Of a DNA stretch of 64,000 nt, positions 1,780 to 62,297 are shown piece after piece. This stretch comes from Eledone cirrhosa (lineage: Eukaryota), in contig OZ024740.1 in the NCBI GenBank assembly GCA_964016885.1, forward strand, positions 414,160,001 to 414,224,000, written 5' to 3'. The notes below the pieces were generated by a model. It saw nothing but the letters and a program-made list of their open reading frames with translations, made no database searches and had not been told where the DNA came from. A program made the position numbers and the translations under genes. How positions within the stretch are numbered: the stretch's first letter is position 1; the number at the start of each line of letters is the position of its first letter.

Positions 1780-1872
1780 TGATAAAATGGGGAGAAAAAT
1801 ACTGCTGGTAGCACATGGATAACATGTAATAAAATAAGTCCCTCATCAGTGATGAGGGACTTATTTTATTGG
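1780..1872 (-). mobile_element. Tiny fold-back insert: perfect 21-bp-arm hairpin (1828-1870) plus tail, between (TA)n runs
   Basis: aataaaataagtccctcatca-g-tgatgagggacttattttatt. The arm resembles the terminus of the 61697-62297 element. Confidence 0.7.
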
Positions 1873-2060
1873 CATATATATATATATATATATATATATA
1901 TATATATATATATATATATATGTAGATAAATCTACCAAGAGTTTACGGTAGTGTCCAATATATATATATATATATATATATATATATATATATATATATA
2001 TATATGCCAATATATGAATAATCAAGACCGTAGCGGTATGTCATATATCAAATCATATAT

Positions 2061-2120
2061 TTTGTCTGATGAGGACGTACTGAAAAAACAACACAGTACC
2101 TTTGAAATATATACAATAAA
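2061..2120 (+). ncRNA. Degenerate minimal hammerhead-like motif
   Basis: tttgt-CTGATGA-gg..gtactg..cagtac..-GAAA-TATA-TA-caataaa. Confidence 0.4.
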
Positions 2121-3158
2121 GTATATATTTTGATTATGAGAATATTTTTCATTTGTTAATATTTTGAATAATATTTGGAATTTTGAAATTGCAGAATATG
2201 AATTGTGCTGCAAATATGTTGAATGATAGAACCACACTCAAGGCAGTGTGCGACAGTAGATATTGACTTCCGGCCGACCCAGGAGGAGTCACACCTGACT
2301 GTGAATAGATTACAACCTCCGGATTCAGTAATCTACACGAAAACCACGTGGCGGACATGTAAATAACTTAGTTGTCATTGACAGTTTTAGCCGGGAGTTT
2401 TCTATATTTTTTACAGAAATTTGCACCCACCCTAATAAACCCGCTTATTATTGTAACCACATCTGCTTTTCCTCCACTCTGCCATAGGTAATTCTGGAAG
2501 CGAAGTTCTCTGTATACACCTTCTGTCTATGTGACGGAATAGCCATCACGATTTACATTTACAGCGGTATAATTGTATACGGTATGACAATCTGTTTCGA
2601 TGCCGATTTGGCCTTACAGTGAATTTCACTTAGGACGTTGGATTGACTGACCGAACGTGAGGACTTTGGGAGATTGCAGTTATTGCGGACCTGTCGTATT
2701 TTCAATTTCCTCACTGGAGTGTCGGCTGTACATATACCCCACCTCTCTTCAATTCATCGTACTTTATTTCATTTTATTTTAGATTTAGGGGTTTATCGCT
2801 GACTGCCTATCCGGATAAATCCCCGGAGTATATCTTTTGGAAACATAGTGTTACTTCGCCTAACGTTCGGAACTGGAACCAATGGACGTTGTCCGTAGGG
2901 TGCTGATAATATACGGAGGATCGACCTATTACAAGGCGGGATAACTTTCCTATAGACAATCCTACATGTAAAGCTGCACCAACTATCCTTCTCACAGACT
3001 CATGCTTGCAAGATCTCTTAATCTGCCTGTACATCCTGTATCTACACTGCTTCTGCTTTGATGTATCTATGCCTTGATTTGTTTGTTTATTTTGGTGTTT
3101 TGCTTCTGCGTTTTTTATTGTTTTTTTTTTTGTTATTTTTTGGGGGTTTTTTTATCAT

Positions 3159-3700
3159 CAGCAGGGGGATCTCTAGGCCAGCGCTAAATAGAAACAGACA
3201 CAATTCATGACGCACATACTGTCATAAAATGTCATAAAAAATGTCATAAAAAATGTCATAAAAAATGTGATAAAAATTACATCAAAGATCACATCAAAAA
3301 TTTATCATTTACATGGTGCAGGTGCAATAGATGACAAGGAGGTTGGGAGAGGGTAGCAGGAAATGAGTGAAGGTGTTATAAGTAACACCTAACACCATGT
3401 AAATGATAAATTTTTGATGTGATCTTTGATGTAATTTTTATCACATTTTTTATGACATTTTTTATGACATTTTATGACAGTATATGCGTCATGAATTGTG
3501 TCTGTTTCTATTTAGCGCTGGCCTAGGGATCCCCCTGCTGGCCCCTTAACCTTGTTCTGGTGACGCAGCCTGATGGAGCATGCAACTATTGATATACTCT
3601 TATTTATAGGCTCTGATGATACCTGCCTTAGGGTACGGATGAAACACTGTTAGCTAATAAAACAATGTATTTCTAAGCACTCTTTGGTTATTCCTAAACC
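3159..3700 (+). mobile_element. Fold-back element (arms 3159-3318 and 3393-3540) with a 3' extension carrying an HHR, ending in (TA)n
   Basis: cagcagggggatc...catggtg is the near-perfect reverse complement of caccatg...gatccccctgctg. Confidence 0.75.
3609..3655 (+). ncRNA. Minimal hammerhead ribozyme motif
   Basis: ggct-CTGATGA-tacc...ggat-GAAAC-ACT-GTT-agct-AATAAA. Confidence 0.55.
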
Positions 3701-3709
3701 TATATATAT

Positions 3710-4170
3710 ATCAACTAGAAATTGATTGACATATATATATATCTAAAATGAAACAATCACAGGGGATAATTTGTAAAGTGTGTAAGCACATACAGCTAGG
3801 TAGGTAACCAATTAAAGTTTAACTAGAACTTCATATATAGATACCTTTTAAAATAATTAATCTTCCTTGTATATATTTCATTAAAGAAATATATTTCACC
3901 ATTAATCGGCAAGGAAGATTAATAATTTTAAAAGGTATCTATATTTGAAGTTCTAGTTAAACTTTAATTGGTTACCTACCTAGCTGTGTGTGCTTACACA
4001 CTTTACAAATTATCCCCTGTGATTGTTTCATGTGTTTATTCTATATATATATATGTCAATCAATTTCTAGTTGATTTAAAATGCTCGGATCTATTCATTG
4101 CAATATTTGAGTATATTCTACAGTGGATATGGCGCATGTCTCTCGGACATTACACCCTTAATTTAATTTT
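3710..4170 (+). mobile_element. Two nested fold-back inserts: outer arms 3710-3730 and ~4055-4075 plus tail, inner arms ~3748-3869 and ~3910-4031
   Basis: Outer: atcaactagaaattgattgac / gtcaatcaatttctagttgat. Inner: atgaaacaatcacagggg...cttccttg / caaggaag...cccctgtgattgtttcat. TA runs lie at the junctions. Confidence 0.75.
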
Positions 4171-59413: not shown

Positions 59414-60797
59414 ACCCGAATCTAGATACCCACTCTACTTCTAAAACCTACCCCTAATAACACCTCTCCTCCTAGATCCTTTAACTGCCAACATAAGCCA
59501 TTAGATACCTTCACCAAATACCACTCCGACTAGCATAAGATTAGATCTTATATCTCTCTATCCACTCTACTTGTAACTCCTACCCACTCAAACACCCTAC
59601 CTCCAGCCGCCGCGGCTTGTTTCGGCGCCTGGCGGTATCTTAAAATAATCCCCTGTTAGATAAAACTAGTACTTGGCCCCACCCCCAGGTTAATTTATTA
59701 CCTTTCAACTATATTTTATGAAATCTGGTCACCATGGCCAGAGTTCCTTCGCTCTTCCATCTTCCCCCTTCGTCTTCTCCCATTTCTTCTCACTTTTCTC
59801 ATCTTCCTCCTCACCCCCTCCTCCCCTATCCACAATACGCAAATTAAGTAAGTTCTTACCAGCGATATTACCTCCTCTTTCTAAACTCCACTCACAAATA
59901 AAACTTTTCTCATTGGCCACATAGATTGTCATCTCTCCTTACAAACATAATATTATTTCAATTTTCCCTTAATCCTTTCTTTATATATTGTTATACTTGG
60001 GGAGGGTCATATTGTTGTAATAATATTGCCAGAAATAATAACAGAACACACTTACTGTTTGGTTGGTTTTCGCTTCTGTATCTTTTATATCTCCATAATT
60101 AATTTATTTGGCAATCAATATATATATGTGTGTGTGTTTGTGTGTGTGTGTGGGGGGGGGGGGGGTTATGTCTGTGTATGTGTATGTACGTATACCATTT
60201 TAATTATATTATTGTTTATGTTTGCTTATTTTTACTTATTTTCGCTTCTTATTATTGGTTTAATATTTTCGCCTACCAGTTCTGTTACATTTCGGATGTT
60301 ACTTTCTTTGTGTGCCAGTGGTTTGTACCTTGGAGCAGTTAGCAGTAAAGGATACATATTGCAAAAATGCAGTGACCTCGCCTTGGACTATAACAATTTT
60401 TCTCTTTCTGATGAAGTGCAATATTTTATTACGTAATGCAAACGATTTGGGCATGGAATTTGCAGTCAGCGCATGTAGACGGTTATTGTACACAAATATA
60501 TGTTAAAGAATGAACTCTGAATACATTTCTCCTTCTTACCAATTCTTCCTGCCTAGTTATTCCTCTTTTTCATGTTTCATGGTACCATACTTATTATATA
60601 TATATGTATATATATGTGTGTGTGTGTGTGTGTGCGTGTGTGCGTGTGTGCGTGCGTGCGTGCGTGTGTATCGAGCCAGACAATGGTATTTCGTCTATAT
60701 ATATACCTATGTATATATGCGCACACATAAATATGTGTGGGTTTTGCATTTGTGTATGTGTGTGTATATATATATATATATATATATATATATATAT

Positions 60798-61016
60798 AAT
60801 GAAGGAAGTGTGGTAAGGAACCAGGTGGACCATAACGCACCAGAGTACTCGATATTTTGGGTAGTAGAGTGGGTAATAGGAAAAGGTTCAGGACCCCGAC
60901 GGCAGAGCTGAAGCCATTTCGACGGCTATTTCTGGACTCAGACGGCTATTCTGAGTCCAGAAATAGCCGTCGAAACGGCTTGAGCTCTGCCGTCGGGGTC
61001 CTGAACCTTTTCCTAT
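60798..61016 (-). mobile_element. Fold-back insert (arms 60876-60942 and 60950-61016) with the 3' half of a hammerhead and a tail, in (TA)n
   Basis: gacggctatt..aatagccgtc-GAAAC-GGC..GCC-GTC-ggggtc; tail shared with 32629-32705. Confidence 0.8.
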
Positions 61017-61129
61017 ATATATATATATATTCCAGGACGATCGACTTTCGTCAAATCGGACCGAGGAAACAATGTTTCCGTTGGTCTTTCCAATTGCTAA
61101 TACTATCTATCGGTCGCAACTCCAGGTAG

Positions 61130-61252
61130 AAGGAGCAACGTGAAATAAAGTGTCTTGCTCAAGGACATAACGCATCGCCTGGTCCAGGAATCGAACTCAC
61201 AACCTTACGATTGCGAATCCAATTCTCTAACCACTCAGCCACACGCCTTCAC
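61130..61252 (-). mobile_element. tRNA-derived CORE-type SINE
   Basis: Reverse strand: tggctgagtggttagag (A box), gagttcgattcc (B box), tgtccttgagcaagacactttatttcac (CORE-like). Confidence 0.75.
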
Positions 61253-61696
61253 TATATATATATATATATATATATATATATATATATATATATATATATA
61301 TATATATATATATATATATGTATGTATATATATATATATATATATATATATATATATATATATATATATATATATATATATATATATATATATATATATA
61401 TATATATATATATATATATATATATATATATATATATATATATATATATATATATATATATATATATATATATATATATATATATATATATATAAAACGA
61501 ATGATCGTGTCTCGAGCTGTCTGCCGGCGAAACAATTGTAAAACACAATAAATTGAGTTCAGATGCATCACTGATTTTTCGTTTTATATTATATCACAGT
61601 CTGCTCTGTGAGAACATAGAGTGCTCAACAGGCATACCGCTTATGGAAGCATCTTAGCTACCATCAGACACACACACACATATATATATATATATA

Positions 61697-62297
61697 TATG
61701 AATAAAGTTAGTCCTTCATCAGTGATCTTCCAACCATCATTGGTATTTCATCGCTTTAAAGACCATATACCTCCGGTTGGTGCGAGCAACGGCTAAAAAG
61801 AGTCGTTGGGACACGAGAGTGTAAACAAACAAAGATGGTGAAGCAACGAAATGTGAGGAAGAACGAGTCAAGTCCCAAATTTCCATGAATATAAGTTCGG
61901 TGAAATCGTGAACGAGAGAGAATAAAGACCATCAATCCTGGTTGGAATGTGAGCAAGGAAGGAATTCCGTACAGGTCTAACGGGAGGAAGAAGGAATCTA
62001 GTCTGTGAATTCGGTGAACATAAGTTCTGTGAAATCGTAGACGAGTCTCTCGTGTACGATTTGGGACTTGACTCGTTCTTCTTCACTTTTCGTTGCTTCA
62101 CCATCTTTGTTTGTTTACACTCTCGTGTCCCCTTTATTTACGTGTCCCGACGACTTTTTTTAGCCGCTGCTCGCACCAACCGGAGGTATATGGTCATTAA
62201 AGCGATGAAATACCAATGATGGTTGGAAGATCACTGATGAAGGACTAACTTTATTCATATGTAACCCATTCGCAACCACGCAGCGCGTTTATTCTCA
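61697..62297 (+). mobile_element. Fold-back insert (arms ~61697-61880 and ~62060-62260) with short tail, in (TA)n
   Basis: atgaataaagttagtccttcatcagtgatc.. / ..gatcactgatgaaggactaactttattcat. Confidence 0.8.

Follow-up and report, generated by a model that had tools for sequence, protein, structure and literature searches.

Asymmetric hairpin inserts in (TA)n tracts of Eledone cirrhosa and their probable origin as truncated Penelope-like element insertions

Hairpin-shaped DNA segments that hold no open reading frame (ORF) and carry a tail at one end only raise the question of how they came to be inserted. We analyzed a 64,000-nt stretch of the Eledone cirrhosa genome (GCA_964016885.1, contig OZ024740.1, positions 414,160,001 to 414,224,000), referred to as the window, in which a first-pass annotation had listed such inserts in (TA)n tracts and had assigned them either to extreme 5'-truncation of Penelope-like elements (PLEs) or to a non-autonomous class of hairpin retroelements. 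The hairpins are probably short 5'-truncated PLE insertion products (Hydra-type where motifs are present), each derived from two separately primed complementary DNAs (cDNAs) joined head-to-head. Their PLE origin as such is considered highly probable; PLE membership is firm only for inserts that bear a motif or are linked to a family, which does not cover inserts 3748, 3710, 42498, and 43422.

Geometry of the inserts

Inverted repeats were confirmed at all 13 listed sites, with arms of 17-334 nt and arm identities of 79-100%, in agreement with the earlier count of at least 13 inverted-repeat inserts with arms of about 20-330 bp. In the masked window, 14 inverted-repeat centres (exact 14-mer arms no more than 900 nt apart) were found, compared with 0-2 per local shuffle (30 shuffles). 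Eleven of the 14 centres account for 12 listed inserts, and the remaining three are one inverted pair of short interspersed nuclear elements (SINEs) and two unlisted fold-backs (36979 and 55116); insert 24506 was missed, its arms being too diverged for the exact 14-mer test. These two fold-backs, whose structures span 36835-37120 and 55057-55221, had been overlooked. The structures are as follows.

1780..1874, minus strand: insert of the 61697 family; arms 1828-1848/1850-1870, spacer 1 nt, tail 47 nt
3159..3700, plus strand: insert 3159; arms 3159-3324/3386-3540, purine-rich spacer 61 nt, tail 160 nt with a decayed hammerhead at 3613; the left flank is not a TA run
3711..4171, plus strand: insert 3710; arms 3711-3731/4054-4074 flanking a TA centre, tail 97 nt
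3743..4041, no strand assigned: insert 3748, a near-symmetric hairpin nested within the TA centre of insert 3710; arms 122 nt, spacer 40 nt, no hammerhead found
24501..24691, plus strand: insert 24506; arms 24501-24556/24565-24620, spacer 8 nt, tail 71 nt
31476..31896, plus strand: insert 31472 of a high-copy family; arms 145 nt, spacer 33 nt, tail 98 nt, a hammerhead motif in each arm at 31566 (minus) and 31708 (plus)
32592..32706, plus strand: insert 32589 of the 60798 family; arms 17 nt, spacer 0, tail ~80 nt
32723..33558, plus strand: insert 32721; arms 334 nt, spacer 13 nt duplicating the left arm end, tail 155 nt, variant hammerhead core at 33245
36835..37120, no strand assigned: unlisted inverted repeat whose TA centre contains a 78-nt insert
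42499..42768, no strand assigned: insert 42498, a near-symmetric hairpin; arms ~125-130 nt, centre 1 nt, no tail, no convincing hammerhead in the descriptor scan
42989..43407, no strand assigned: insert 42991, a hairpin; arms 196/189 nt, one Hydra-type hammerhead motif in each arm, at 43144 (minus) and 43257 (plus)
43417..43651, minus strand: insert 43422, a diverged hairpin; outer arms 43470-43522/43596-43648, inner hairpin 43545-43598, tail ~52 nt
55057..55221, plus strand: unlisted insert 55057; arms ~21 nt, spacer ~80 nt, right-hand tail
60799..61013, minus strand: insert 60798; arms 60879-60942/60950-61013, spacer 7 nt duplicating arm sequence, tail 80 nt
61700..62297, plus strand: insert 61697; arms 61700-61880/62059-62256, spacer 178 nt, tail 41 nt

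A tail of 41-160 nt on one side only was observed in 10 of the 13 listed inserts, which agrees with the tails of about 40-160 nt attributed to most of them. No clear one-sided tail was found in 3748 (10 vs 5 nt), 42498 (4 vs 2 nt), and 42991 (ambiguous). Insert ends lay within 5 nt of a (TA)4 or longer run in 24 of 26 cases, compared with 1.45% of random positions, a count that is partly circular because tail ends were placed at the next TA run. In a non-circular test, the alignment-defined arm end was within 5 nt of a TA run in 12 of the 13 inserts (the exception being 3159), and the TA flanks described previously were thus corroborated. A terminal inverted copy was flagged for 17 of 69 TA-bounded complex segments, which does not give a clean frequency, several flags being trivial (microsatellite, short self-palindromes, and parts of larger elements). 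A diverged hairpin at 53450-53609 (arms ~60 nt, spacer 38 nt) adjoins a (GT)n run, not (TA)n.

Relatedness to Penelope-like elements

The window also contains coding elements and related ends, which were compared with the inserts.

11..682, minus strand: 5'-truncated Hydra-type ORF remnant (thumb, linker, endonuclease) located by tblastn, with its 3' end outside the window
678..699, no strand assigned: near-perfect palindrome of 22 bp where ORF remnant 11..682 and arm 700..1654 meet head-to-head
700..1654, plus strand: putative inverted arm of the 11..682 element; pyrimidine-rich untranslated region (UTR), hammerhead-like motif at 1496
2006..2170, plus strand: hammerhead-bearing 3' end related to 31472 (z 9.9), no inverted arm found
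21261..24460, plus strand: coding Hydra-type element; inverted arm 21261-22154, ORF remnant 22156-23370 (two stops), direct arm 23475-24366, variant hammerhead core at 24305, tail 24367-24460
44195..48593, plus strand: composite; tail-less inverted arms 44198-44721/47639-48592, two SINE copies in the right arm
62378..64000, minus strand: second copy of the 21261 family, 91% identical, with an identical tail end base, cut by the window end

As judged by protein similarity and motifs, the coding elements match Hydra-clade PLEs. The remnant of element 21261, translated with X at the two stops, matched 12,089 proteins, the best being 46% identical (P0002). It comprises a reverse transcriptase (RT) followed by a C-terminal GIY-YIG-type endonuclease, with motifs compared by eye with a published alignment, and the element is 5'-truncated at RT4. 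The translation contains a CxCX5C linker and, around the conserved E and N, CxxC and CxH, as in the Hydra clade. Pfam matched none of five fragments of the coding element, and nothing was found when the endonuclease piece was compared with longer proteins in a word-indexed search. Hydra-type remnants were located by tblastn with Hydra-like proteins at 682-11, 44900-45403, 47394-46976, 48648-48773, 58924-59386, and 64000-63512. In the sections of PMC8557442 considered here, the Hydra clade shares with the elements of the window the CxCX5C linker, CxxC and CxH near the end, a divergent RT4, a hammerhead-like motif near the 3' end, and insertion into (TA)n, and it differs in that the coding element of the window has a variant hammerhead core and that six insert motifs have no match in the supplement.

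The first-pass annotation had ascribed the same inverted-arm geometry to two coding PLEs. This holds for 21261-24460, which has arms of 894/892 nt and a tail of 94 nt, the tail-bearing arm being the longer arm; it does not hold for 44187-48596, a tail-less composite of two elements and two SINE copies, in which an RT remnant (44900-45403, plus) is followed by the endonuclease remnant of the second element (46976-47394, minus). The arm at 700..1654 ends tail-less in (TA)n, at a point matching the arm end of 32721, and the 32721 arm is similar to it (z 14.6 in 300 block shuffles, ~65-77% identity). Diverged tandem duplications of ~135 bp were observed inside Hydra-type 3' UTRs (21406-21683 and 59341-59604), and a similar one explains the spacer of 61697.

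The type I hammerhead descriptor gave nine hits on the window and 0, 0, and 0 in three shuffles. Hammerhead-like motifs were found in five of the 13 listed inserts, namely, 3159, 31472, 32721, and 42991 in a relaxed descriptor scan and 24506 by eye, from both arms; the earlier statement that the inserts often carry ribozymes was therefore too strong. The insert motifs resemble those of the Hydra table in the PMC8557442 supplement. Both copies of element 21261 have the three hammerhead stems, with one core base deviating from the canonical one. Further motifs outside the listed inserts were observed at 20961, 27624 (minus), 50621 (minus), 54031 (minus), 55671 (minus), and 60408, most with a palindromic stem III; these probably represent plain 5'-truncated PLE ends that lack an inverted arm. 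No significant similarity was found between 42498 and the 27624 hammerhead, 50621 and 32721, or 31941 and 31472.

Among 306 comparisons, the only matches between inserts above z 5 were 32589/60798 (z 39) and 1780/61697 (z 16), in addition to the two arms of 44187. Both family pairs have a common arm/tail boundary and differing fold points, with arm lengths of 17 vs 64 nt (32589/60798) and 21 vs ~190 nt (1780/61697). Insert 61697 contains a 9-nt interrupted palindrome, and the fold centre of 1780 falls at that position. Metagenome contigs gave no match to a 20-base motif of the 32589/60798 family.

Four public sequencing runs, which represent at most three samples (X2 and X3 being one), were mapped on 31200-33900 at 80% likeness; run X1 (share 0.14) contributed little. 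The 31472 and 32721 families were very abundant, with depth peaking at the arm end and tail; in X2, the depth was 62,242 at the 32721 arm end/tail vs 404 at its centre, ~150-fold lower. Twelve displayed joints, called at 80% likeness with sides of 24-25 letters, were consistent with other fold points (81 more joints exist beyond those displayed), and 7,669 reads of X5 pass into TA-like letters just past the 31472 arm end. As the tails are deeply covered and common to copies, they are element sequence in three families. The truncation point varies within families, and two 3' end points likely exist. The joint from 31546 to 31826 was set aside as proof of non-overlap, as it may be due to mis-mapping.

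The proposal that the inserts are extreme 5'-truncated PLE products forming a size series gained support from the family pairs with differing fold points, the many further joints, and the 3'-to-5' depth gradient. It is further supported by the similarity of the 32721 arm to the ORF-adjacent Hydra end and by an ORF-less insert in another host (locus L089, described below) that matches the 3' end of a coding Hydra element at 100% identity. The other proposal, in which PLE proteins would re-insert the transcribed hairpin as one unit, was hardly borne out and is considered very unlikely. The families are very abundant, and a few 31472-family joints have depths of 60-675 where most have 9-25, as expected for an amplifying unit. 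However, hot spots at palindromes or mis-mapping may account for the high-depth joints, the joints are diverse, the fold point differs within both in-window pairs, and related ends exist without an inverted arm (2006). Non-LTR retrozymes (bioRxiv 10.64898/2026.07.22.740005, in the part considered) are likewise ORF-less, PLE-derived, and equipped with a type I hammerhead, but they consist of head-to-tail tandem units with a hammerhead in each, whereas the window inserts are head-to-head and variable; no head-to-tail hammerhead tandem was present among the direct repeats of the window.

The inserts had also been described as mimicking miniature inverted-repeat transposable elements (MITEs) while being asymmetric. 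The asymmetry stands for the 10 of 13 with a one-sided tail and fails for 3748 and 42498, which are near-symmetric, and no uniform family size was found. These two inserts, tail-less and without a hammerhead, may be MITEs, and TA targets would conceal any target duplication. For the inserts as a whole, an origin as MITEs or foldback DNA transposons that entered at TA, the tails being flanking sequence by chance, is extremely unlikely, given that the tails recur with deep coverage across copies, that size varies within families, and that hammerhead motifs lie in the arms; no transposase turned up, although no search aimed at one was made. Rfam scored several microRNA models on the hairpins, all below threshold, and hairpins of this kind can readily be mistaken for MITEs or microRNA precursors in annotation.

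Spacer polarity and the joining of the two arms

For PLEs, an inverted truncated copy, a one-sided tail, junction palindromes, and a bias toward (TA)n have been published (PMC8557442 and PMC3846280, in the sections considered), and Penelope-13_HM is listed with an inverted 5'-truncated copy (PMC8557442). The window inserts share with these endonuclease-containing PLE insertions the head-to-head inverted copy, the tail at one end, the junction palindromes, and the microsatellite targets. They are unlike them in having tails of 41-160 nt vs the published 30-40 nt, in being mostly too short for an ORF, and in that the spacer often lies on the tail-less arm. The origin of the inverted repeats and tails of PLEs is named an open problem in PMC8557442.

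If a single tail-primed cDNA folded back at a short palindrome and copied itself, the spacer would have to lie on the tail-bearing arm. In four window inserts, the spacer belongs to the tail-less arm. For 31472, contigs continue from the left arm into the spacer, and the spacer, when reverse-complemented, matches the letters that another copy has upstream of 31654. The spacer of 61697 is continuous with the tail-less arm, and a tandem unit bridges the arm end and spacer (z 16.7). The 8-nt spacer of 24506 completes hammerhead stem I of the tail-less arm, and that of 55057 holds a hammerhead core on the minus strand, i.e., on the tail-less arm. By composition, the spacer of 3159 would also belong to the tail-less arm (46 of 61 purines vs 0.41).

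Corresponding structures were observed in a hand-picked subset of 90 Hydra-type loci fetched from other hosts, of which 31 have some inverted repeat; outside ORF sequence, the window inserts did not match any of the 90. L024 consists of an arm, an ORF, an arm, and a 71-nt tail, the same geometry as 21261. L089 contains an ORF-less insert of 103 nt in (TA)n that is composed of an inverted 51-nt pre-tail piece and a direct tail piece of 49 nt; the two do not overlap, and each is 100% identical to the coding copy on the same contig. Endonuclease-coding sequence is found on the tail-less arm only in L043 and in L089 9408-10148, the latter with a short duplication at the junction. Eleven Hydra-type PLE loci (L080-L090) lie in records titled as bacterial genomes and are likely animal host DNA. 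Separately, a PLE of another type occupies L089 7841-9233; it is 5'-truncated, and at its 5' end a copy-back-like hairpin of 78 nt immediately follows (TA)n.

The spacers on the tail-less arm and the non-overlapping L089 insert cannot be yielded by one folding cDNA; thus, both arms were likely templated by RNA independently. The first-pass annotation had termed the inserts fold-backs, and as a mechanism this is contradicted wherever the spacer belongs to the tail-less arm. A single fold-back for most or all inserts is accordingly unlikely, as the opposite polarity is seen in 31472, 61697, 24506, 55057, L043, and two L089 structures, while the centre of 1780 at a template palindrome, the L089 7841-8002 hairpin, and arms that are closer to each other (95.5%) than to the sister copy (92%) would fit it. 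Spacers are also small relative to the arms in 11 of 16 structures, which is suggestive only, as this count was hand-entered and is biased by which hairpins are recognizable. Single fold-back may act in a subset of inserts.

Self-priming on an antisense transcript was proposed in PMC3846280 (in the part considered); combined with the same PLE origin and with later trimming of one outer end, which would leave the tail, it is quite unlikely here. It agrees with palindromic junctions and near-zero spacers, and because trimming could leave the tail on either arm, spacer polarity alone is compatible with it. However, the L089 insert with two non-overlapping pieces is left unexplained, and extension in vitro used sense RNA with two start sites matching genomic tail ends (PMC11167929, in the part considered).

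Two separately primed cDNAs are the best explanation and the likely one. The endonuclease would nick both strands of a (TA)n run, as has been demonstrated in vitro for the Poseidon element PAc (PMC11167929). This element is of another PLE clade, and the sections considered say nothing on how inverted copies arise; it shares with the window the cleavage and extension of both strands, a pair of adjacent start sites that mark off the tail, AT-rich targets, and a predicted dimer, and the two-strand cutting and extension from two tail-bounding sites fits dual priming. [quoted passage not shown] Only one arm would have a tail because the tail is the stretch between these two sites. Both cDNAs would stop early, often near the same point, as the short spacers suggest, perhaps on one truncated RNA. 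A short palindrome or microhomology would let their 3' ends pair, in some cases leaving a small templated duplication, as seen in the junction sequences, and repair, possibly including host end-joining, would complete the hairpin, which would be a by-product and not a functional unit. In L1 twin priming, a second target nick primes a second cDNA, and the inverted 5' segment is joined by microhomology. In the inserts, by contrast, the second cDNA would begin close to the 3' end at a fixed site, and in most cases the two segments overlap, so that an inverted repeat results.

Several points weigh against dual priming or against PLE origin for every insert. DNA similarity to an ORF-adjacent end was found in only one of the 13 inserts (32721), where the ORF link of the matching arm is adjacency, and no insert matched the 21261 or 44187 ends in the 306 comparisons. 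Eight of the 13 lack a hammerhead, Rfam gave no hammerhead among the matches listed for the window (150 of 175) or in two short segments, and monomer folding energies were unremarkable (z -2.1 to 0.4). None of six insert motifs was found in the PMC8557442 supplement, in which line breaks could hide matches. The zero- or one-base spacers of 1780, 32589, and 42498 fit simple fold-back equally. Some joints are of high depth (411 and 562-675), which may reflect amplification as a unit or mis-mapping, and there was no empty site among the displayed joints of the four runs on 31200-33900. Among the other hosts, the tail of L043 measures only 13 nt before the contig end, L089 is a single contig from an assembly titled as bacterial, and the inverted arm of its 7841-8002 hairpin starts inside the ORF of another PLE type and not at a fixed 3' site.

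More tentatively, the inserts could be a genomic record of a PLE dimer that uses both (TA)n nicks and makes two cDNAs from the two tail-defining sites of one RNA, joined head-to-head, some mini-hairpins having later spread as non-autonomous units. If so, a single mechanism, dual priming by a PLE dimer, would explain both the inverted pseudo-long terminal repeats and the one-sided tail. The literature searched, which did not extend to key subscription papers, yielded no account of PLE inverted repeats that invokes dual priming. The structures themselves are the expected product of a known element class, and the gain is a modest, testable clue to mechanism. Such very short insertions number in the thousands, with outer ends that are fixed and junctions that vary, and counts made on them can put the mechanism to the test: dual priming can be told apart from fold-back or antisense self-priming by the polarity of the spacer, by inserts whose pieces do not overlap, and by microhomology at the junction.

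Other repeats in the window

A TA-flanked element of ~200 bp at 8733-8934, with terminal inverted repeats of ~24 nt and a non-palindromic interior, contrasts with the inserts and is presumably a true mariner-type MITE. A dispersed repeat of ~200 bp, which we take to be SINE-like, is present in a dozen or more copies that are 82-92% alike, and it is very deep in all four runs at 31336-31376. Its copies are as follows.

9041-9240, 28688-29120, 29787-29991, 34450-34638, and 35805-36009: copies of the dispersed repeat
37473-37694, 41564-41787, 47785-48226, and 51210-51422, with shorter pieces: further copies

A 31-bp tandem array (289 copies, 96% matches) occupies 9244-18205. Its edges resemble 27950-28147, a stretch resembling retroelement coding sequence, and the array may have grown from such an element.

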